From a virus (taxonomy: Duplodnaviria; Heunggongvirae; Uroviricota; Caudoviricetes), in the IMG/VR virus record IMGVR_UViG_2778261151_000017, positions 1-10,984 of that record: DNA of 10,984 nt. One strand, 5' to 3'. The notes below the pieces were generated by a model. The model saw nothing but the letters and a program-made list of their open reading frames with translations, did not search any database and was not told the DNA's origin. The translations under genes were made by a program, and so were the position numbers. Below, in pieces: positions 1-10,984 of the stretch (its first letter is position 1; each line of letters opens with the position of its first letter).

Positions 1-648
1 ATGGCAGCGACGCACACACTCCCTCTGGCGTCACCGGGCATGGCACGCATCTGCCTTTACGGGGATTTACAACGATTTGGCCGCCGCATCGACCTTCGAG
101 TGAAAACGGGGTCTGAAGCCATCCGGGCGCTGGCCATGCAGATCCCGGCGTTTCGTCAGAAACTGAGCGACGGCTGGTACCAGGTACGCATTGCCGGGCG
201 TGATGCAGGTGAAACCGAATTGTCTGCCCGTCTTAATGAGCCGCTGGCAAATGGTGCCGTGATCCACATCGTGCCGCGTCTGGCGGGAGCTAAAAGTGGC
301 GGTGTGTTTCAGGTGGTGCTGGGGGCGGCGCTGATTGCGGTGGCATGGTGGAACCCTGTGGGCTGGCTGGGTGCCGCGGCTGTATCGGGCATGTATGCGG
401 CAGGGGCCAGTATGATCCTGGGCGGAGTGGCGCAGATGCTGGCACCGAAAGCCAGGACGCCCACGGCAGCAAGTACAGATAACGGCAAACAGAACACCTA
501 TTTCTCCTCACTGGATAACATGGTTGCCCAGGGCAATGTTCTGCCGGTTCTGTACGGTGAAATGCGCGTGGGGTCACGCGTGGTTTCTCAGGAAATCAGC
601 ACGGCAGACGAAGGGGATGGTGGGCAGGTTGTGGTGATTGGTCGCTGA
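1..648 (+). CDS. I: Tail tip assembly protein I (lambda gpI-like), 215 aa
   Basis: ORF of 215 aa starting with ATG at position 1. The N-terminus (MAATHTLPLASPGMARICLYGDLQRFGRRIDLRVKTG...) and C-terminus (...KQNTYFSSLDNMVAQGNVLPVLYGEMRVGSRVVSQEISTADEGDGGQVVVIGR) match my recollection of lambda gpI; the middle is Gly/Ala-rich and hydrophobic. It lies immediately upstream of J, as in lambda. The identification is from memory. Confidence 0.88.
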   Translation: MAATHTLPLASPGMARICLYGDLQRFGRRIDLRVKTGSEAIRALAMQIPAFRQKLSDGWYQVRIAGRDAGETELSARLNEPLANGAVIHIVPRLAGAKSGGVFQVVLGAALIAVAWWNPVGWLGAAAVSGMYAAGASMILGGVAQMLAPKARTPTAASTDNGKQNTYFSSLDNMVAQGNVLPVLYGEMRVGSRVVSQEISTADEGDGGQVVVIGR

Positions 649-666
649 TGCAAAATGTTTTATGTG

Positions 667-687
667 AAACCGCCTCCGGGCGGTTTT
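667..687 (+). other. GC-rich hairpin in the I-J intergenic spacer (possible attenuator or RNA stability element)
   Basis: aaaccgcc (667-674), loop tccg, ggcggttt (679-686) form an 8-bp stem, followed by a T-rich stretch (tttt a tcg ttt). It sits between the I stop (646-648) and the J ribosome-binding site GGAG (697-700). Confidence 0.3.
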
Positions 688-708
688 ATCGTTTATGGAG
701 CATGACGA

Positions 709-3700
709 ATGGGTAAAGGCAGCAGTAAGGGGCATACCCCGCGCGAAGCGAAGGACAACCTGAAGTCCACGCAGTTGCTGAGTGTGATCGATGCCATCAG
801 CGAAGGGCCGGTTGAAGGTCCGGTGGATGGATTAAAAAGCGTGCTGCTGAACAGTACGCCGGTGCTGGACACTGAGGGGAATACCAACATCTCCGGTGTC
901 ACGGTGGTGTTCCGTGCCGGTGAGCAGGAGCAGACACCGCCGGAGGGGTTTGAATCCTCCGGCTCCGAGACGGTGCTGGGTACGGAAGTGAAATATGACA
1001 CGCCGATCACCCGCACCATTACGTCTGCAAACATCGACCGTCTGCGCTTTACCTTCGGTGTGCAGGCACTGGTGGAAACCACCTCAAAGGGGGACCGGAA
1101 TCCATCGGAAGTCCGCCTGCTGGTTCAGATACAACGTAACGGTGGCTGGGTGACGGAAAAGGACATCACCATTAAGGGCAAAACCACCTCGCAGTATCTG
1201 GCCTCGGTGGTGGTGGATAACCTGCCGCCGCGCCCGTTCAGTATCCGGATGCGCAGAATGACGCCGGACAGCACCACAGACCAGTTGCAGAACAAAACGC
1301 TCTGGTCGTCATACACCGAAATTATCGATGTGAAACAGGGCTACCCGAACACGGCACTGGTCGGCGTACAGGTGGATTCGGAGCAGTTCGGCAGCCAGCA
1401 GGTGAGCCGTAATTATCATCTTCGCGGGCGCATTCTGCAGGTGCCGTCGAACTATAACCCGCAGACGCGACAATACAGCGGTATCTGGGACGGAACGTTA
1501 AAACCAGCATACAGCAACAACATGGCCTGGTGTCTGTGGGATATGCTGACCCACCCGCGCTACGGCATGGGAAAACGTCTTGGTGCGGCGGATGTGGACA
1601 AATGGGCGCTGTATGTCATCGGCCAGTACTGCGACCAGTCAGTGCCGGACGGCTTTGGCGGCACGGAGCCGCGCATCACCTGTAATGCGTACCTGACCAC
1701 ACAGCGCAAGGCGTGGGATGTGCTCAGTGATTTCTGCTCGGCGATGCGCTGTATGCCGGTATGGAACGGGCAGACGCTGACGTTCGTGCAGGACCGACCG
1801 TCGGATAAGGTGTGGGCCTATAACCGCAGTAATGTGGTGATGCCGGATGATGGTGCGCCGTTCCGCTACAGTTTCAGCGCCCTGAAAGACCGCCATAATG
1901 CCGTTGAGGTGAACTGGATTGACCCGGATAACGGCTGGGAGACGGCGACAGAGCTTGTTGAAGATACGCAGGCCATTGCCCGTTACGGTCGTAACGTCAC
2001 GAAGATGGATGCCTTTGGCTGTACCAGCCGGGGGCAGGCGCACCGCGCCGGGCTGTGGCTGATTAAAACGGAACTGCTGGAAACGCAGACCGTGGACTTC
2101 AGCGTGGGTGCGGAAGGGCTTCGCCATGTACCGGGGGATGTCATTGAAATCTGCGATGATGACTATGCGGGTATCAGCACCGGCGGGCGCGTGCTGGCGG
2201 TGAACAGCCAGACCCGGACGCTGACGCTCGACCGTGAAATCACGCTGCCATCCTCCGGTACCACGCTGATAAGCCTGGTTGACGGTCAGGGTAATCCGGT
2301 CAGCGTGGAGGTCCAGTCCGTCACCGACGGCGTGAAGGTGAAAGTGAGCCGTGTTCCTGACGGCGTTGCAGAATACAGCGTGTGGGGGCTGAAGCTGCCG
2401 ACGCTGCGCCAGCGCCTGTTCCGCTGCGTGAGTATCCGTGAGAACGACGACGGCACGTATGCCATCACCGCCGTGCAGCATGTACCGGAAAAAGAGGCCA
2501 TCGTGGATAACGGGGCGCACTTTGACGGCGACCAGAGCGGCACGGTAAATGGTGTCACGCCGCCAGCGGTGCAGCACCTGACTGCCGAAGTCACCGCAGA
2601 CAGCGGGGAATATCAGGTGCTGGCGCGCTGGGACACGCCGAAGGTGGTGAAGGGCGTGAGTTTCCTGCTTCGCCTGACCGTGGCAGCGGATGACGGCAGT
2701 GAGCGGCTGGTCAGCACGGCCCGGACGGCGGAAACCACATACCGCTTCACGCAACTGGCGCTGGGGAACTACAGGCTGACAGTCCGGGCGGTAAATGCGT
2801 GGGGACAGCAGGGCGATCCGGCATCGGTATCGTTCCGGATTGCCGCACCGGCAGCGCCGTCTCGGATTGAGCTGACGCCGGGCTATTTTCAGATAACCGC
2901 CACGCCGCATCTTGCGGTTTATGATCCGACGGTACAGTTTGAGTTCTGGTTCTCGGAAAAGCGGATTGCGGATATCAGGCAGGTTGAAACCACAGCCCGC
3001 TATCTTGGTACGGCGCTGTACTGGATAGCCGCCAGTATCAATATCAAACCGGGCCATGATTATTACTTTTATATCCGCAGTGTGAACACCGTTGGCAAAT
3101 CGGTATTCGTGGAGGCTGTTGGTCAGCCGAGTGATGATGCATCCGGCTATCTGGATTTTTTCAAAGGCGAGATAGGGAAAACCCATCTGGCTCAGGAGCT
3201 GTGGACGCAGATTGATAACGGTCAGCTTGCGCCTGACCTGGCTGAAATCAGGACGTCCATTACGGATGTCAGCAATGAAATCACACAGACCGTCAATAAG
3301 AAACTGGAAGACCAGAGTGCAGCGATCCAGCAGATACAGAAGGTTCAGGTTGATACAAATAATAACCTGAACAGCATGTGGGCAGTGAAGCTGCAGCAGA
3401 TGCAGGACGGACGCCTTTATATTGCGGGTATCGGTGCCGGTATTGAGAACACCCCTGACGGCATGCAGAGTCAGGTGCTGCTGGCGGCGGACAGGATTGC
3501 GATGATTAATCCTGCAAATGGCAACACAAAACCGATGTTTGTTGGTCAGGGTGATCAGATATTCATGAATGACGTGTTCCTGAAACGCCTGACGGCTCCC
3601 ACCATTACCAGCGGTGGAAATCCGCCGGCATTTTCCCTGACACCGGACGGAAAGCTGACCGCTAAAAATGCGGATATCAGTGGCAGTGTGAATGCGAACG

Positions 3701-4206
3701 CCGGGACGCTCAACAATGTCACGGTAAATGAAAACTGTACGATTAAGGGCATGCTGGAGGCGACTCAGGTCAGAGGTGACTTCGTTAAAGCTGTATCCAA
3801 ATCATTCCCGAAACAGGCTGGTACGTGGGGTAATACGGAAACACCAAACGGGACGGTTACAGTCACCATCAGCGATGATCATAACTTTGACCGTCAAATC
3901 ATTATTCCGCCCATTATCTTTAACGGAATAGCGTATAGCGATCCGGGAAGTGGTAATAACCCGGGAGGTACAAGATACACGGGTTATGGTTTTGAAGTTC
4001 GCAAAAACGGCGTATTAATCGCATCCAGAGAAACTAAAGGGGCCATTCCCGGTAGTTACAGTGCAGTTATTGATATGCCGAGTGGCAGGGGAAGCGTCAC
4101 TCTGGAGTTTAAGATTTTCCAGAAAGGCAATCAGGGGGCAGGCAATATCACCGACTGTACGGTGATTGTGACCAAAAAAGCCGCTTCCGGCATCAGTATT
4201 CGTTGA
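709..4206 (+). CDS. J: Tail tip host-specificity protein / central tail fibre J (lambda gpJ-like), 1165 aa
   Basis: ORF of 1165 aa with GGAG 8 nt upstream of the ATG. The N-terminal and central sequence ([34 protein letters not shown]..., [37 protein letters not shown]...) matches my recollection of lambda J. The size is close to lambda J (about 1130 aa) and it follows I. The C-terminal part (after about nt 3200) is the region I am least able to match from memory. Confidence 0.92.
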
Positions 4207-4224
4207 AATATTTATAACCCCAAT

Positions 4225-4252
4225 AAAGGGCGTCAGGAATGACGCCTTTTTT
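4225..4252 (+). terminator. Rho-independent terminator-like hairpin downstream of J
   Basis: Stem ggcgtca (4229-4235), loop ggaa, tgacgcc (4240-4246), extendable by A:U pairs, followed by tttttt (4247-4252). It starts 19 nt after the J stop codon. Confidence 0.6.
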
Positions 4253-4276
4253 ATTGCAGAAAAGCGAGAGGTAATT

Positions 4277-4876
4277 ATGCGTAAAGTTTGTGCAGCAATT
4301 TTGTCCGCAGCCATTTGTCTGGCCGTATCCGGTGCGCCTGCATGGGCGTCTGAACATCAGTCCACGCTGAGCGCGGGGTATCTTCATGCCTCGACGAACG
4401 TCCCCGGCAGTGATGATCTGAACGGGATTAACGTGAAATACCGTTATGAGTTTACGGACACACTGGGGCTGGTGACGTCATTCAGCTATGCAGGAGACAA
4501 GAATCGCCAGCTGACCCGTTACAGCGATACCCGCTGGCATGAAGATTCCGTTCGTAACCGCTGGTTCAGCGTAATGGCGGGGCCGTCTGTGCGCGTGAAT
4601 GAATGGTTCAGCGCGTATGCGATGGCGGGTGTGGCTTACAGCCGTGTGTCGACTTTCTCCGGGGATTATCTTCGCGTAACTGACAACAAGGGGAAAAAGC
4701 ACGATGTGCTGACCGGAAGTGATGACGGTCGCCACAGCAACACGTCTCTGGCGTGGGGGGCTGGCGTGCAGTTTAACCCGACCGAATCCGTGGCCATTGA
4801 TATTGCTTATGAAGGCTCCGGCAGTGGTGACTGGCGCACTGACGGTTTCATCGTGGGTGTCGGTTATAAATTCTGA
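4277..4876 (+). CDS. lom: Lom outer-membrane protein (Ail/Lom family beta-barrel), 199 aa
   Basis: ORF of 199 aa with ribosome-binding site GAGAGG (4266-4271) 5 nt before the ATG. The N-terminus is signal-peptide-like (MRKVCAAILSAAICLAVSGAPAWA) and the protein ends in an aromatic residue (...GVGYKF), typical of outer-membrane beta-barrels. Sequence and position (between J and stf) match lambda lom as I recall it. Confidence 0.9.
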   Translation: MRKVCAAILSAAICLAVSGAPAWASEHQSTLSAGYLHASTNVPGSDDLNGINVKYRYEFTDTLGLVTSFSYAGDKNRQLTRYSDTRWHEDSVRNRWFSVMAGPSVRVNEWFSAYAMAGVAYSRVSTFSGDYLRVTDNKGKKHDVLTGSDDGRHSNTSLAWGAGVQFNPTESVAIDIAYEGSGSGDWRTDGFIVGVGYKF

Positions 4877-4902
4877 TTAGCCAGGTAACACAGTGTTATG
4901 AC

Positions 4903-4929
4903 AGCCCGCCGGTTCAGGCGGGCTTTTTT
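4903..4929 (+). terminator. Rho-independent terminator-like hairpin downstream of lom
   Basis: Stem agcccgcc (4903-4910), loop ggttca, ggcgggct (4917-4924) is a perfect 8-bp GC-rich stem followed by ttttt (4925-4929). It lies 27 nt after the lom stop and just before the stf start. Confidence 0.6.
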
Positions 4930-4940
4930 GTGGGGTGAAT

Positions 4941-7900
4941 ATGGCAGTAAAGATTTCAGGTGTACTGAAAGACGGCACAGGAAAACCGGTACAGAACTGC
5001 ACAATCCAGCTGAAAGCAAAACGTAACAGCACCACGGTGGTGGTGAACACGCTGGCCTCAGAAAATCCGGATGAAGCCGGGCGTTACAGCATGGACGTTG
5101 AGTACGGGCAGTACAGCGTTATTCTGTTGGTGGAAGGCTTCCCGCCGTCACATGCCGGGACCATCGCCGTGTATGAAGATTCCCGACCCGGTACGCTGAA
5201 TGATTTTCTCGGTGCCATGACGGAGGATGATGCCCGTCCTGAGGCACTGCGCCGTTTTGAACTGATGGTGGAAGAGGTGGCGCGTAACGCGTCCGCGGTG
5301 GCACAGAACACGGCAGCCGCGAAGAAGTCAGCCAGCGATGCCGGCACATCAGCCCGTGAGGCGGCAACCCATGCGACTGATGCTGCAGGCTCAGCACGCG
5401 CAGCCAGCACGTCAGCCGGACAGGCCGCTTCGTCGGCTCAGTCAGCGTCTTCCAGCGCAGGAACGGCATCAACAAAGGCCACTGAAGCGGAAAAAAGTGC
5501 TGCCGCTGCAGAGTCCTCAAAAAGCGCGGCGGTCACCAGTGCCGCTGCGGCGAAAACGTCAGAAACGAATGCGGCAGCGTCACAACAATCAGCAGCCACT
5601 TCTGCATCCGCCGCGACCACGAAGGCGTCAGAAGCAGCCACCTCAGCCCGGGATGCGGCGGCCTCAAAAGAGGCAGCGAAATCATCAGAAACGAACGCAT
5701 CATCAAGCGCCAGTAGTGCCGCTTCCTCGGCAACGGCGGCAGGAAATTCCGCGAAGGCGGCAAAAACGTCCGAGACGAACGCCAGGTCTTCTGAAACGGC
5801 AGCGGGACAGAGTGCCTCAGCTGCGGCAGGCTCAAAAACAGCGGCTGCATCATCTGCCAGTGCCGCATCAACAAGTGCCGGGCAGGCCTCAGCCAGTGCC
5901 ACCGCTGCCGGAAAGTCGGCAGAAAGTGCCGCATCGTCTGCTTCAACAGCCACAACGAAGGCTGGCGAAGCCACTGAACAGGCCAGCGCAGCAGCGAGGT
6001 CAGCTTCCGCAGCGAAGACATCCGAAACGAACGCGAAAGCGTCGGAAACCCGTGCAGAATCCTCAAAAACGGCTGCCGCATCGTCAGCCAGTTCGGCGGC
6101 GTCATCGGCATCATCGGCGTCTGCTTCAAAAGATGAGGCGACCATACAGGCGTCAGCAGCGAAGGGCAGCGCCACGACGGCATCCACGAAGGCGACAGAG
6201 GCTGCTGGTAGTGCGACGGCAGCAGCTCAGAGCAAAAGTACGGCGGAATCTGCAGCAACGCGCGCTGAGACAGCGGCAAAACGGGCAGAGGATATTGCAT
6301 CCGCCGTGGCGCTTGAGGATGCGAGCACGACGAAAAAGGGGATAGTACAGCTCAGTAGTGCGACTAACAGCACGTCTGAAACGCTGGCGGCAACGCCAAA
6401 GGCAGTAAAATCAGCCTATGACAATGCAGAGAAACGTCTGCAGAAAGACCAGAACGGCGCTGATATACCCGATAAGGGACGCTTCCTGAACAACATTAAC
6501 GCGGTCAGTAAAACAGACTTTGCTGATAAGCGTGGTATGCGTTATGTGCGGGTTAACGCTCCTGCAGGTGCAACATCTGGAAAATATTACCCTGTTGTTG
6601 TTATGCGTTCTGCTGGCTCAGTAAGCGAACTGGCATCAAGGGTCATTATCACCACGGCAACGCGAACCGCAGGCGATCCGATGAATAACTGCGAGTTTAA
6701 CGGATTTGTTATGCCTGGTGGCTGGACTGACAGGGGGCGTTATGCTTATGGAATGTTCTGGCAATATCAAAACAATGAACGAGCCATCCACTCAATAATG
6801 ATGAGTAATAAGGGCGATGATTTGCGCTCTGTGTTCTATGTTGATGGCGCTGCTTTCCCTGTTTTTGCGTTTATCGAAGATGGCCTGTCAATATCCGCAC
6901 CTGGTGCTGATCTCGTTGTTAATGATACGACCTATAAGTTTGGGGCAACAAATCCGGCGACTGAATGTATCGCGGCGGACGTTATCCTTGATTTTAAGAG
7001 TGGGCGTGGTTTTTATGAGTCTCATTCGTTAATCGTTAACGATAACTTGTCGTGCAAAAAACTTTTTGCCACAGACGAAATTGTAGCGCGTGGTGGTAAT
7101 CAGATTCGAATGATAGGTGGGGAGTATGGGGCATTATGGCGTAATGATGGCGCTAAAACTTACCTGCTGCTTACCAATCAAGGTGATGTTTATGGTGGCT
7201 GGAATACATTAAGACCGTTTGCTATTGATAACGCAACCGGCGAACTGGTTATTGGAACCAAACTGTCCGCAAGTCTGAACGGTAATGCATTAACAGCAAC
7301 AAAGCTGCAAACGCCAAGACGGGTTTCTGGTGTTGAGTTTGATGGTTCCAAAGATATTACTTTAACCGCCGCGCATGTGGCTGCTTTTGCCAGAAGGGCA
7401 ACGGATACATATGCCGATGCGGATGGTGGCGTTCCCTGGAATGCCGAATCAGGCGCTTATAATGTCACCCGCTCTGGCGACAGCTATATTCTGGTTAACT
7501 TCTATACCGGAGTCGGAAGTTGCCGGACCTTGCAGATGAAGGCGCATTACAGAAATGGTGGTCTGTTCTACCGTTCTTCAAGAGACGGTTATGGTTTTGA
7601 GGAAGACTGGGCAGAAGTTTATACCTCGAAAAATCTTCCACCAGAAAGCTACCCAGTCGGCGCACCAATCCCGTGGCCATCAGATACCGTTCCGTCTGGT
7701 TATGCCCTGATGCAGGGGCAGACTTTTGACAAATCTGCCTACCCGAAACTTGCAGCCGCTTATCCGTCAGGCGTGATCCCTGATATGCGTGGCTGGACGA
7801 TTAAGGGCAAGCCCGCCAGTGGTCGTGCCGTATTGTCTCAGGAACAGGACGGCATAAAATCGCATACCCACAGCGCCAGCGCATCCAGTACTGATTTGGG

Positions 7901-8342
7901 GACGAAAACCACATCGTCGTTTGATTACGGCACTAAATCCACGAATAACACTGGTGCGCATACCCATAGTATTAGCGGGACCGCAAATAGTGCCGGCGCG
8001 CACCAACACAAGAGTTCCGGTGCATTTGGTGGCACGAACACGAGCATTTTCCCTAATGGTTATACCGCGATTTCAAATCCAAGCGCGGGGATTATGAGCA
8101 CAACAAGCGGTAGTGGCCAGACTCGTAATGCAGGGAAGACATCATCAGATGGTGCTCATACCCACTCGCTGTCCGGCACTGCTGCAAGCGCAGGCGCACA
8201 TGCACATACTGTCGGTATTGGTGCTCATACGCACTCCGTTGCGATTGGCTCACATGGACACACCATCACCGTTAACGCTGCGGGTAACGCGGAAAACACC
8301 GTCAAAAACATCGCATTTAACTATATTGTGAGGCTTGCATAA
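4941..8342 (+). CDS. stf: Side tail fibre protein Stf (lambda Stf-like), intact, about 1133 aa
   Basis: One continuous ORF. The N-terminus [26 protein letters not shown] and the C-terminus ...[11 protein letters not shown] match lambda Stf as I recall it. It contains a long Ala/Ser/Thr-rich segment with repeated K(T/S)SETNA motifs, the tail-fibre motif [43 protein letters not shown], and C-terminal His-x-His repeats (GAHTHS, GAHAHT, GSHGHT). I place the start at ATG 4941; the ORF track starts at an in-frame GTG at 4935, which is less likely. Confidence 0.88.
5283..6336 (+). repeat. Low-complexity Ala/Ser/Thr-rich coding repeat region inside stf
   Basis: About 350 codons are dominated by GCN, TCN and ACN codons. 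At least four imperfect copies of a roughly 24-nt unit encoding AAK(T/S)SETNA occur near 5553-5575, 5677-5699, 5763-5785 and 6013-6035. This region generates long spurious ORFs in the other frames. Confidence 0.65.
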
Positions 8343-8926
8343 TGGCATTCAGAATGAGTGAACAAGCACGGACTATAAAAATTTATAATCTGCTGGCCGG
8401 AACTAATGAATTTATTGGTGAAGGTGACGCATATATTCCGCCTCATACAGGTCTGCCAGCAAACAGTACCGATATTGCACCACCAGATATTCCGGCAGGC
8501 TTCGTGGCTGTTTTCAACAGTGATGAGGCATCGTGGCATCTCGTTGAAGACCATCGGGGTAAAACGGTTTATGACGTGGCTTCCGGCGACGCGTTATTTA
8601 TTTCTGAACTTGGCTCGTTACCGGAAAATGTCACCTGGTTATCGCCGGAAGGGGAATATCAGAAGTGGAACGGCACAGCCTGGGTGAAGGATCCGGAAGC
8701 AGAAAAACTGTTCCGGATCCGGGAGGCGGAAGAAACAAAAAACAGCCTGATGCAGGTAGCCAGTGAGCATATAGCGCCACTTCAGGATGCTGTAGATCTG
8801 GAGATCGCAACGGAGGAAGAAACCTCATTGCTGGAAGCCTGGAAAAAATATCGGGTGTTGCTGAACCGTGTTAATACAACAACTGCACCTGATATTGAGT
8901 GGCCGGAAGAACCAGACACAATGTAA
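8342..8926 (+). CDS. tfa: Tail fibre assembly protein / chaperone Tfa (lambda Tfa-like), 194 aa
   Basis: ORF of 194 aa beginning [44 protein letters not shown]..., matching my recollection of lambda Tfa. Its ATG overlaps the stf stop by 1 nt (TAATG at 8340-8344), and GAGG (8330-8333) lies 8 nt upstream. Confidence 0.9.
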
Positions 8927-8940
8927 GCGAAAAAGAAAAA

Positions 8941-8973
8941 CCGCAGACACGACGTATGCAGGACGTGCTGCGG
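8941..8973. terminator. Candidate bidirectional terminator hairpin between convergent tfa (+) and the 252-aa gene (-)
   Basis: ccgcag(a)cacg (8941-8951), loop of about 12 nt, cgtgctgcgg (8964-8973) form a roughly 10-bp stem with one bulge. It is followed by ttt on the + strand and preceded by aaaagaaaaa (8931-8940), which reads TTTTTCTTTT on the - strand, so the - strand direction looks the more canonical. Confidence 0.4.
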
Positions 8974-9092
8974 TTTGGCTAGTAAACTTTTGATAGTGCG
9001 AGTATTGAATGATTTCCAGCCCATTACTCATTTTACGCTTTTCACGCGCAAGAGAAATTGAACTTTATTCCTCTGTCACCACATGACGGGGA

Positions 9093-9851
9093 TTAACATT
9101 CTGGATTTTTTATTTCTAAATCAGATAAAGCATTAATTCTTATTTTTTCTAAGGCTTTATCCATGGCCCCCTTGATTCTGTATCCATAATCATCCGGTTC
9201 TTCATATTCCTGTGGGGACGGATTTGTACCAATATTCTCAATTAATTCATTTAAAATAACTGTTACTTCTTTATTAAGAAGAACTGCTTTAGTTAACATC
9301 ATCTCTGTTAATGCTGTGAAGGCTAGGCTAAGTTTCTGTTGTAGCTCTTTATTTTTTAATTTAAGATCTTCATCGTTTAGTGCTTTATCACGGTCTTCGT
9401 GAGCCTGTTGTACTTCATCCCAAAACAGCTTTTCTTGTTCTTGATTAAAATATCCTTGATAACTATTGGCTACATATGTTGGCATCATGTGAATCTCAAT
9501 AATTTCAAATTCATTATCAGCCCATTTTTTTATACTAAGTAACTGAGTGTAAATGTACTCATACATATCGTACTTTTTTTGCCAGATTTGTTGAGAAATC
9601 CACAACTCAGAAGTAATCTTTTTTTCTATATCTTTGATAGTTGTTGTATTTAATGCTAACTGCTTTCTGAGTATTTCATAGTTAGCGTTGGTAGCAGAAA
9701 TTTTTGCTTTTTCAGTTATAAAAGAAACAATAAAGTTCACTATGAGAGCTGCAATAATAATAGCGAAGCTCAACCCTAAAATCTCTGTGGTTGAGAAATT
9801 AGATGACTGTAATGCTTTGATAAGTTCAAAAAACTGTTTTTCTGTGAGCAT
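9093..9851 (-). CDS. Hypothetical single-pass membrane protein, 252 aa, function unknown (accessory / candidate defence gene)
   Basis: An uninterrupted 252-codon ORF in DNA of about 22-40% GC, where stop codons are frequent by chance, so it is very likely real. A possible ribosome-binding site AAGG lies 4 nt before the ATG (9849-9851) on the - strand. It has one hydrophobic helix near the N-terminus (ILGLSFAIIIAALIVNFIVSFI, about residues 24-45), then a K/E/Q-rich, Trp/Tyr-containing region with coiled-coil character and an acidic C-terminal end. I see no Walker A, HEXXH, HNH or other catalytic motif. Confidence 0.78.
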   Translation of the reverse strand: MLTEKQFFELIKALQSSNFSTTEILGLSFAIIIAALIVNFIVSFITEKAKISATNANYEILRKQLALNTTTIKDIEKKITSELWISQQIWQKKYDMYEYIYTQLLSIKKWADNEFEIIEIHMMPTYVANSYQGYFNQEQEKLFWDEVQQAHEDRDKALNDEDLKLKNKELQQKLSLAFTALTEMMLTKAVLLNKEVTVILNELIENIGTNPSPQEYEEPDDYGYRIKGAMDKALEKIRINALSDLEIKNPEC

Positions 9852-9922
9852 GGTACCTTACCAAAAATTAAGACTGTTATCTATATAAAAATGTTACCCA
9901 AGAGGGATTGTAATGAAATAAC

Positions 9923-9944
9923 AAACCGGCACATTGGCCGGTTT
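9923..9944 (-). other. Intergenic hairpin between the two - strand genes (possible partial terminator, attenuator or processing site)
   Basis: aaaccggc (9923-9930), loop acattg, gccggttt (9937-9944) form an 8-bp stem. On the - strand it is followed by GTTATTTCATTA, which is T-rich but interrupted. I found no convincing sigma70 -35/-10 pair in the 97-nt spacer (9852-9948). Confidence 0.3.
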
Positions 9945-9949
9945 GAAGT

Positions 9950-10984
9950 TCAAGGGGGTGAGATTGTAGAGGCGTTACCTTGTTCTATCACACCAGACCT
10001 AATCTTATAACTACCAAGGATGTTGACCGTTTTATTATTTTTCATCGCGTCAAAAATTAAGCCTATTTCATCAGGATCATTGATAAAACTGGTATCAACA
10101 TAGATCGGGAATGAATCATCACCTGTTGGCTCATGGCAGCTTAACGTTAGCTTATCGGCTGAGCGTTTTATACTATCAATGACAACTTCCAATGTTTGCT
10201 GCTCTGACTTAGCCTTTTCAATTGGGTTCTTGATGATTTCTTGAACCTGACCTTGCGAAAGCTCAATATTGCTGGCCCCGCGGATCGTCACTTTGTCTGC
10301 ATCAGATGCACCTTTAAGAACTCCAGTGTATGCCTTAGCTGTGTGCTCTTGGATACCTTCGGCGCGCTCTATCGTATCAATACCTTCATGTGCTTTTATT
10401 GCAGACAGCATACCATCGCGTAGAATTGTCATCCGCTCGGATTCTGCTCGCTGTTTTGCTTCTTCCAGTTGTAACTCAATAGTTTTGGTTTCGACTTGTG
10501 TCTGATGATCTAAGTAGGACGTACCGACCCATGCGCCGCCTAAAACTAAGACAGCAAACAGGAAACACATTGTTTTCTGTCTTGGGCTCATACCTTGCGT
10601 TACCTTCTCAAATGCGTTACCAAAGGAATCAATAAGTTCTTTAACTGAGGTGATAATTTCTGTGCAGCCAGGATTGATAGTAAAAACCAACTCTGCAGCT
10701 TCTCGATCCTCAGCAGTGAGCTTCTGTAAGTTAGAGGTTTTGTACTTGATTAGAGTAAAAACCTTGTACATCTCAGTTTGAAATTCACAGATACCCTGTG
10801 CCAAACTTGCAGGCAGAGTACCATTATACTTATCTTCATCACCAAAAAATTTGAAATCAATACTTTCTAAGAAGTTTAACTTCAAATTTTCAATGTGGAT
10901 TTCTTCGCCTGAAATAACTCGTCCGAAAATATTTTCTATATCATCAATATCATTGATTTCATAGGCCTGAATTGCATCTTCCAT
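9950..10984 (-). CDS. Hypothetical membrane-anchored protein, 344 aa, function unknown (accessory / candidate defence gene)
   Basis: A 344-codon ORF on the - strand whose ATG is the last three bases of the window (10982-10984), so its promoter and ribosome-binding site are not visible. It has a highly acidic N-terminal region (MEDAIQAYEINDIDDIENIF...), one central hydrophobic helix (MCFLFAVLVLGGAWVGTSYL, about residues 138-157) preceded by basic residues (SPRQKT), then a charged segment with coiled-coil character (IELQLEEAKQRAESERMTILRDG...) and a C-terminal region (...GDDSFPIYVDTSFINDPDEIGLIFDAMKNNKTVNILGSYKIRSG...). I recognise no catalytic motif. Confidence 0.75.
   Translation of the reverse strand: MEDAIQAYEINDIDDIENIFGRVISGEEIHIENLKLNFLESIDFKFFGDEDKYNGTLPASLAQGICEFQTEMYKVFTLIKYKTSNLQKLTAEDREAAELVFTINPGCTEIITSVKELIDSFGNAFEKVTQGMSPRQKTMCFLFAVLVLGGAWVGTSYLDHQTQVETKTIELQLEEAKQRAESERMTILRDGMLSAIKAHEGIDTIERAEGIQEHTAKAYTGVLKGASDADKVTIRGASNIELSQGQVQEIIKNPIEKAKSEQQTLEVVIDSIKRSADKLTLSCHEPTGDDSFPIYVDTSFINDPDEIGLIFDAMKNNKTVNILGSYKIRSGVIEQGNASTISPP

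Follow-up and report, generated by a model that had tools for sequence, protein, structure and literature searches.

The classical morons and exclusion genes of lambdoid phages include rexAB and sieB of lambda, gp15 of HK97, and lom and bor. PdpSau, from Staphylococcus aureus prophages, and AbiP, from Lactococcus, are membrane-anchored, single-protein abortive-infection factors, and PdpSau acts with loss of membrane potential (PMC10127798). Here we describe a gene for a 252-residue protein in a stretch of viral DNA of 10,984 nucleotides (IMG/VR record IMGVR_UViG_2778261151_000017, positions 1 to 10,984; hereafter the window), which is the right end of a lambdoid Escherichia coli prophage integrated at prfC. 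The gene lies on the minus strand at 9093-9851, with an ATG start at 9851-9849 and a TAA stop at 9095-9093. It is an autonomous accessory unit, or 'moron', with terminator hairpins on both sides and a GC content far below that of the phage backbone, and by sequence comparison its product belongs to a small, undescribed family with no known sequence relative. We have high confidence in the structural and genomic description of the gene and its family. An anti-phage function, suggested by genomic context, is in our judgment a credible but tentative reading.

The protein shares its general plan with PdpSau and AbiP. Each is the product of a single accessory gene on a prophage or plasmid, is about 250-280 residues long, and has one N-terminal transmembrane (TM) helix, a cytoplasmic C-terminal domain and no enzymatic motif; for the 252-residue protein, this arrangement of helix and domain comes from hydropathy and positive-inside prediction. 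The family has no sequence similarity to PdpSau or AbiP, however. Their cytoplasmic domain is OB-fold-like and nucleic-acid-binding, whereas that of the family is modelled as an all-helical stalk and four-helix bundle with no OB fold, and PdpSau is predicted to be N-in while the family is predicted to be N-out/C-in. With the lambdoid morons, the gene has in common that it is an autonomous, terminator-bracketed insert of deviant GC, set against the late operon, that it encodes a membrane product, and that it is placed where it would probably be expressed in the lysogen. It differs from them in that neither SieB (PF14163) nor a PHROG family has a match in the family, and in that its slot is bounded by the tail fibre assembly gene (Tfa) and DinI/attR instead of being part of the immunity region.

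The sequence-only reading of the window, a model's account of the letters and a list of open reading frames (ORFs), had described this ORF, and we recover it exactly, on the minus strand and with an ATG start. At a GC content of ~32%, a stop codon is expected about every 13 codons, and we estimate from composition that 252 open codons would occur with p ~1e-9. Comparison with a Klebsiella copy yields a nonsynonymous divergence (dN) of 0.106 and a synonymous divergence (dS) of 0.755, or a dN/dS of ~0.14; against more distant copies, pN is 0.16-0.32 and pS is saturated. The gene is under strong purifying selection and is real, not a chance ORF. The same reading had noted the short distance between an AAGG site and the ATG and had asked whether the start is correct. 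The spacing is as it noted (AAGG at 9859-9856, then 4 nt, then the ATG), but the doubt proves unfounded. An in-frame TAA stands at 9860-9858, 9 nt upstream of the start, and rules out any longer ORF. All homologues begin at this position, with ATG and GTG interchanged, and codons 2-23 are the most constrained stretch of the gene (pN 0.02-0.08 versus pS 0.56-0.78 in the enterobacterial subfamily).

Signals on both sides of the gene mark it as a transcription unit of its own. On the 5' side, a terminator scan finds an intrinsic-terminator-like hairpin on the minus strand at 9912-9945, with a 9-bp stem, 6 G-C pairs and a T-rich tail; it folds at -20.6 kcal/mol (z = -4.3), a value reached by 0 of 200 shuffles. 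This hairpin comes directly after the stop codon of the neighbouring 344-residue gene (9950-10984, minus strand) and lies between the two genes, which are therefore not joined by the uninterrupted spacer of a co-transcribed operon. The 252-residue gene has its own 5' region (9852-9912, minus strand), comprising the AAGG, the in-frame TAA, a T-run and the conserved motif GGGTAACAT, and ~60 nt 5' of the gene are conserved across homologues in unrelated genomic contexts. Within this region, TAACAT at 9896-9891 is a candidate -10 element; in a relaxed scan, several lineages have TAAC[AC]T with its 3' end 39 nt upstream of the start codon. On the 3' side, the minimum-free-energy fold of 8925-9100 contains a hairpin followed by UUUUUCUUUUU (8927-8976); with its U-run, this hairpin (8976-8927, minus strand) probably ends the 252-residue transcript. 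The segment 8900-9037 matches mEp460, HK97 and other lambdoid phages, which places the second hairpin within the shared backbone. Because it is shared in this way and oriented to stop minus-strand transcripts, it may be a fixed 'docking' terminator for whatever cargo occupies the slot.

Composition and distribution fit the same description. GC falls from 0.47-0.62 in the tail genes to 0.31-0.37 beyond them, where the two minus-strand genes sit, and that of the 252-residue gene (0.31-0.34) is distinct from the flanking phage genes. The two-gene cassette is carried by 28 of 5,426 complete E. coli genomes, and its presence is patchy: ~638 genomes have a DinI-prfC prophage junction, versus the 28 with the cassette.

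The 344-residue neighbour (phrog_6191, function unknown; PHROG match at 2.2e-92) was the obvious candidate for a partner. The sequence-only reading had proposed that the 252-residue protein is structural, pore-forming or regulatory toward this upstream gene, and had named independent phylogenetic distribution among the observations that would speak against such a tie. The class of activity is still reasonable, but the part about an upstream partner fails: reciprocal tests find exactly this independent distribution. The genes adjoin each other, share a strand and a low GC content, and are each predicted to encode a membrane protein, and they occur together in 28 of 28 complete E. coli genomes and in viral contigs with an E. 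coli-type copy. By tblastn, however, the two are neighbours only where the 252-residue gene is an E. coli-type copy with 93% identity or more, a single recent arrangement. No 344-residue gene lies within 8-10 kb of the diverged homologues (including those of Klebsiella, Citrobacter, Proteus, Pantoea, Aeromonas, Serratia and Rahnella). Conversely, 21 viral contigs carry relatives of the 344-residue gene, some at 93-95% identity, but no family member at a distance of up to 6 kb. Ten sequenced phages likewise have such relatives and no family member; in one of them, mEp332, the relative is in the immunity region. A profile comparison of the two proteins (hhalign) finds no similarity. The reciprocal distribution and the intergenic terminator lead us to reject the pair as a unit, and since the 252-residue gene also has a conserved 5' region of its own, a module in which its product regulates, anchors or is the effector of the neighbour is very improbable. 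No observation calls for a physical contact between the two proteins in E. coli. The 344-residue gene is best taken as separate, independent cargo, and its product may be a candidate for exclusion or defence in its own right. Its product has a central hydrophobic helix at ~residues 137-160, and relatives in PhiR12 phages are annotated as 'T2SS GspM containing protein'.

The architecture read from the letters (a short N-terminal segment, one TM helix, a long soluble part and no enzymatic motif) is borne out by hydropathy, library scans and an all-helical model. The protein has a single strong hydrophobic segment, residues 24-45 (Kyte-Doolittle 19-residue mean 2.79), and a hydropathy scan of the whole protein finds no second segment at the level of a membrane helix. 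The other ~205 residues are hydrophilic (E 11.7%, K 10.7%, L 10.7%, Q 6.3%; pI 4.9). An AlphaFold2 model based on a 32-sequence family alignment is all-helical, with a mean predicted local distance difference test (pLDDT) score of 90.9. It consists of a short helix at residues 4-16, a continuous helix at 21-129 that provides the membrane segment and a long stalk, and four C-terminal helices. The fold class is that of a helical bundle.

Conservation is spread over several segments, all encoded on the minus strand. Residues 1-23 (9783-9851), predicted to lie outside the cytoplasmic membrane, include an amphipathic helix (H4-16), and L2, E4, K5, Q6, L10, I11, L14, Q15 and S17 are at least 90% conserved in the close family. 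In the enterobacterial subfamily, pN in this segment is as low as 0.02, yet the segment is variable or missing in remote members. Residues 24-45 (9717-9782) form the TM helix and are a hydrophobic helix in 32 of 32 aligned members. Residues 47-110 (9522-9713) are the conserved core of the long helix, with the pattern EKxK..N.NY..L..QL..NT...K.IE......W[IV].QQ.W.KK...Y in two alignments. The most conserved residues of the protein are on the stalk: T69, W84, Q87, W90 and Y97 are invariant family-wide, and A53, Q64, L65, Q88 and K93 nearly so. The aromatic stretch pointed out from the sequence, WISQQIWQKKYDMYEYIYTQLLSIKKW, is present as residues 84-110. Residues 137-244 (9120-9443) form the four C-terminal helices, which together with the distal part of the long helix are modelled as an antiparallel four-helix-bundle domain. 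Between the last two of these helices is an acidic and aromatic loop, P.P..YEEPDDYG.R (residues 211-225; 9177-9221), which is non-helical in the model and in which P211, E217, D220, Y222 and R225 are invariant in the close family. EYEEPDDYGY, which had been taken for an acidic end, is thus real (residues 215-224) but is not the end of the protein; it is part of this conserved loop, ~30 residues before the C-terminus.

The flank of the TM helix on the C-terminal side is richer in K and R in 31 of 32 members (mean 3.2, versus 0.7 on the N-terminal side). By the positive-inside rule, this bias predicts that the soluble domain is cytoplasmic (N-out/C-in). The opposite topology, N-in/C-out, would place the helical domain in the periplasm, where it could block phage DNA entry or a receptor in the manner of classical Sie/Imm/Sp-type proteins. 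Many prophage superinfection-exclusion proteins act at the envelope, the four-helix bundles of chemoreceptors are periplasmic, and close enterobacterial members have only a weak K/R bias (1-2 versus 2). The family-wide bias runs against this arrangement, as do the remote members, whose short, acidic N-termini have no positively charged signal-anchor n-region, and we consider it improbable.

Structural comparison places the protein in a fold class and goes no further. Foldseek returns nothing at E <= 0.001 against PDB and BFVD, and fold searches bring up generic helical bundles only. Among these are the sensor bundles of chemoreceptors and histidine kinases (PDB 6db1, 6s18, TorS 3i9w and NarQ 5iji), with 4-10% sequence identity to the 252-residue protein. 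At such identity, and because de novo designed bundles and talin rods score equally, the resemblance is one of fold class and not of homology. Sensor bundles occupy the periplasm, flanked by a membrane helix on either side, and signal to an output domain, whereas the 252-residue protein has one membrane helix, a bundle predicted to be cytoplasmic and no output domain. The Pfam 4HB_MCP model has no match in this protein or in family members. Hydrophobicity along the long helix has a significant heptad-like periodicity over residues 46-129 (z = 3.7), whereas the exposed stalk taken alone (residues 46-85) has none (z = 1.4), so the periodicity cannot separate intramolecular packing from oligomerisation. 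Oligomerisation via the stalk is plausible.

The family is small. A word-indexed search groups the close relatives, which share 47-99% identity and come from Enterobacterales and Aeromonas, into 56 clusters; with few exceptions their length is 249-252 residues. An exhaustive HMMER scan of 1.84 billion representatives returns 55 proteins at E <= 1e-3; the remote members among them are 19-35% identical and about 210-260 residues long, with the architecture unchanged, and the most remote matches contain no domain fusions. Remote members with a named source come from Vibrio, Alteromonas, Pseudomonas, Endozoicomonas, Serratia, Yersinia, Proteus and others, and the family is mostly gammaproteobacterial; these and all close relatives are labelled 'hypothetical protein'. 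For the window protein and 32 family members, Pfam, NCBIfam, PHROGs and PADLOC give matches at noise level only and none to a catalytic family, which agrees with the all-helical model and with the absence of an enzymatic motif noted from the sequence. A family profile finds nothing below E 0.039 among PDB sequences. The RefSeq accessions of the family are not mentioned in the literature searched or in the DefensePredictor supplements.

Several known identities were considered and set aside. SieB (PF14163) has no match, the Rz-like i-spanin (phrog_739) matches at E 0.98, and PspC at E 0.12 (12 bits versus a cut-off of 136). Tail assembly inhibition (Tai) systems were considered because the gene follows tail genes, and are set apart by description, as no membrane anchor is described for them; tblastn finds no relative of the 252-residue protein in phage records including the phi80 sequence, a search in which no Tai sequence was compared directly.

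The genomic surroundings of the family were compared across 94 loci, which collapse to 41 lineages at 85% identity, with 532 neighbouring ORFs clustered all-against-all; PADLOC and Pfam scans covered 116 immediate neighbours. The sole widely recurring neighbour is a phage integrase, in 8 lineages, and nothing else occurs in more than 4 of the 41. The family is solitary cargo with no conserved partner. In six lineages the order is Xis, Int and then the family gene, after a gap of 4-6 nt, and the gene is therefore at the very edge of the prophage; this arrangement suggests co-transcription with int. The integrase at these sites is ~392 residues long and on the same strand (L061-L063, L080, L093 and L112-L114, at about position 8000). 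One member is cargo of an integrative and conjugative element (ICE), after TraC. A remote member lies in an array of small same-strand genes (Imm50, DUF3892, DUF3024 and others; L065 6866-9472, L066 and L067) separated by gaps of ~130 nt, which by gene arrangement alone looks like an integron cassette array. Other members are single insertions in chromosomal or megaplasmid islands.

Defence genes are found beside several family members. In L056 (1134-5266), a complete Lamassu set (LmuA at 1.9e-90, MC2/LmuC, and LmuB at 8e-119) is directly upstream on the same strand, with a gap of 47 nt, and in L087 (101-1825) an LmuB gene (8.5e-100) is directly upstream on the same strand, with a gap of 175 nt. 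An SMC/LmuB-like ATPase (5.7e-26) is downstream of the family gene in L093, GajB of Gabija (8.5e-125) is beside it in L081, and upstream of it are an OLD/AriA/GajA-type ATPase (2e-26) in L094, a SIR2 protein (2.5e-27) in L064 and a Cap4/SduA-type nuclease (5e-27) in L086. GmrSD, RnlAB and a type IIG restriction-modification enzyme occur near other family loci. Qualitatively, this is a clear signature of defence islands and mobile elements.

The two Lamassu loci could be a four-gene variant of that system or plain adjacency in a defence island. They raise the question of whether the protein is an accessory membrane component (a tether, effector or regulator) of neighbouring multi-gene defence systems such as Lamassu (ABC-3C); the copies in enterobacterial prophages would then be orphans or act in trans. 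The position immediately after LmuB is seen in two independent lineages, one of them with the complete LmuA-LmuC-LmuB set, and elsewhere the gene is on the same strand after an OLD-type ATPase or SIR2 gene, or before an SMC/LmuB-like ATPase. Yet the upstream systems are from different families, each arrangement is seen in one or two lineages only, and the gene mostly stands alone with no Lamassu genes nearby, as it does in every close relative of the window gene. The family has no homology to LmuA, LmuB or LmuC, and the Lamassu set of L056 is already complete without the family gene. We regard an accessory role as distinctly unlikely. Identity with the LmuA effector itself, prompted by weak PADLOC matches and the two LmuB-adjacent members, is rejected: the LmuA profile has no match in the window protein and reaches two remote members only at E ~5e-4, and hhalign against bona fide LmuA gives a probability of 0.6%. 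ABC-3C is not discussed in the conflict-systems paper by Kaur et al.

Of the possible roles, we tentatively favour that of a single-protein, membrane-anchored anti-phage factor, which would be made by the lysogen and act in superinfection exclusion or abortive infection; PdpSau and AbiP are precedents for such an architecture and way of life. We picture a bitopic inner-membrane protein with ~23 residues outside, one membrane helix, a long stalk, and a cytoplasmic antiparallel four-helix bundle. The bundle and the conserved face of the stalk (W84, Q87, Q88, W90, K93 and Y97) may bind a phage component or sense a change induced by infection. Stalk and membrane helices would then oligomerise to produce a response at the membrane, which would be permeabilised or depolarised, or at which a step of infection would be blocked. 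The fullest form of this proposal is a self-sufficient immunity protein, in which stalk and bundle sense a phage product directly, the membrane helices form a lethal or exclusion oligomer, and the gene moves alone between prophage ends, ICEs and integron-like cassettes, occasionally as the fourth gene of Lamassu-type systems; we hold this version as possible, but doubtful in its details.

The protein could instead be a lysogenic-conversion or fitness factor, unrelated to defence, that modulates the host envelope or signalling (e.g. stress response, adhesion or virulence-related physiology) for the benefit of the lysogen. The slot elsewhere carries NleG7, Lom is encoded nearby, some family contexts have no defence genes, and the gene is present in strains of uropathogenic E. 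coli (UPEC) such as UTI89 and NU14. The four-helix bundle is also in the fold class of chemoreceptor and histidine-kinase sensor domains, but the protein has no output domain and no similarity to any signalling family. In distant lineages, the neighbours are mainly integrases and recognised defence genes (Lamassu, Gabija, OLD, SIR2, nucleases, GmrSD and RnlAB) rather than virulence or envelope genes. Distribution is sporadic and highly mobile, with the family in 2 of ~185,000 species-representative genomes and on one plasmid; such a pattern is typical of conflict genes. On balance, we consider a fitness role unrelated to defence unlikely, though well short of negligible.

Several observations weigh against the anti-phage reading. 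Defence neighbours occur in roughly 9-11 of 41 lineages only, a figure judged without a background rate and with many lineages on short contigs, and the Aeromonas copy is a lone insertion beside formate-dehydrogenase accessory genes with no mobile or defence signature. The slot between Tfa and DinI holds cargo outside defence in other strains, namely NleG7, a type III secretion system effector, and an invertase with small genes (ydfK/ynaM). PADLOC matches of family members are noise (best E ~3e-4, to unrelated models), and there is no homology to any defence protein. The structural model says nothing specific about activity, because four-helix bundles are generic. By consensus scan, the 98-nt intergenic region contains no clear sigma-70 site. 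Split or truncated E. coli copies exist. Finally, tblastn finds the family in 0 of 50,697 sequenced phage records, and no sequenced cultured phage carries the gene.

This last result bears equally on a role in the phage life cycle, as a spanin, a holin or another lysis or assembly component. A single membrane helix followed by a long helical region would suit such a protein, as would the match to the Rz-like spanin were it not at noise level. The gene is not part of a lysis cassette and is on the strand opposite to the late genes, and family members occur in ICEs, cassette arrays and chromosomal islands that have no phage genes. A life-cycle function is exceedingly improbable.

Should the anti-phage function hold, the known anti-phage proteins of Enterobacterales would be joined by a compact (~250-residue), single-gene, membrane-anchored immunity protein whose fold family had not been recognised. 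It would also offer a tractable case both for the sensing of infection at the membrane by a non-enzymatic helical protein and for the movement of single-gene cargo between prophage ends, ICEs and cassette arrays. Prophages of E. coli, in uropathogenic strains and others, carry the gene, and the libraries now used to find defence systems lack it. What is new is the sequence and fold family; the kind of element, a prophage moron encoding a candidate membrane-anchored defence protein, is familiar, and many such candidates exist. If the proposed function fails, it would still be right to annotate the product as a membrane protein of a new family that stands on its own, rather than as half of a two-gene system.

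The remainder of the window is a run of plus-strand tail genes, identified from the ORF list and profile scans: a gene for tail assembly (1-648), gene J for tip attachment (709-4206), Lom (4277-4876; Pfam Ail_Lom, 1e-122), the gene for a side tail fibre (4935-8342) and Tfa (8342-8926; Caudo_TAP, 1.7e-44). In UTI89 and similar complete genomes, the cassette is followed by a DinI-like gene and then by chromosomal prfC, and it therefore occupies the final slot ahead of the attachment site. One other E. coli strain has a TIR-domain anti-phage reverse transcriptase in this place, which, like the defence genes beside other family members, favours the anti-phage reading. With alternative occupants in other E. 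coli strains (L119 5018-6622, L120 5859-6509 and L118 5294-6679), the Tfa-DinI slot of prfC-integrated prophages is a variable site at which cargo is swapped.

Some minor observations concern the cassette and its surroundings in other strains. Some E. coli-type copies of the 252-residue gene are split into ORFs of 121 and 131 residues by an apparent frameshift (L017 1134-1891 and L079 1543-2300), and a cluster of 131-residue C-terminal fragments (P0057) has 25 member sequences; as split and truncated copies exist, the gene can be lost and is decaying in some strains. UTI89 has the same cassette beside a different tail fibre region (L001 4846-9027, versus 4935-8926 in the window), with several shorter fibre ORFs and a tail-fibre-assembly gene present only as a truncated pseudogene. 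Because of this difference, the cassette is linked to different fibre modules across prophages. Within the side tail fibre gene of the window, 5250-6350 is a long, repetitive Ala/Ser/Thr-rich region with an AT skew of up to 0.39, and it yields several spurious long ORFs in other frames and on the other strand, such as those at 5338-6345 on the plus strand and at 5438-6187 and 5533-6300 on the minus strand.

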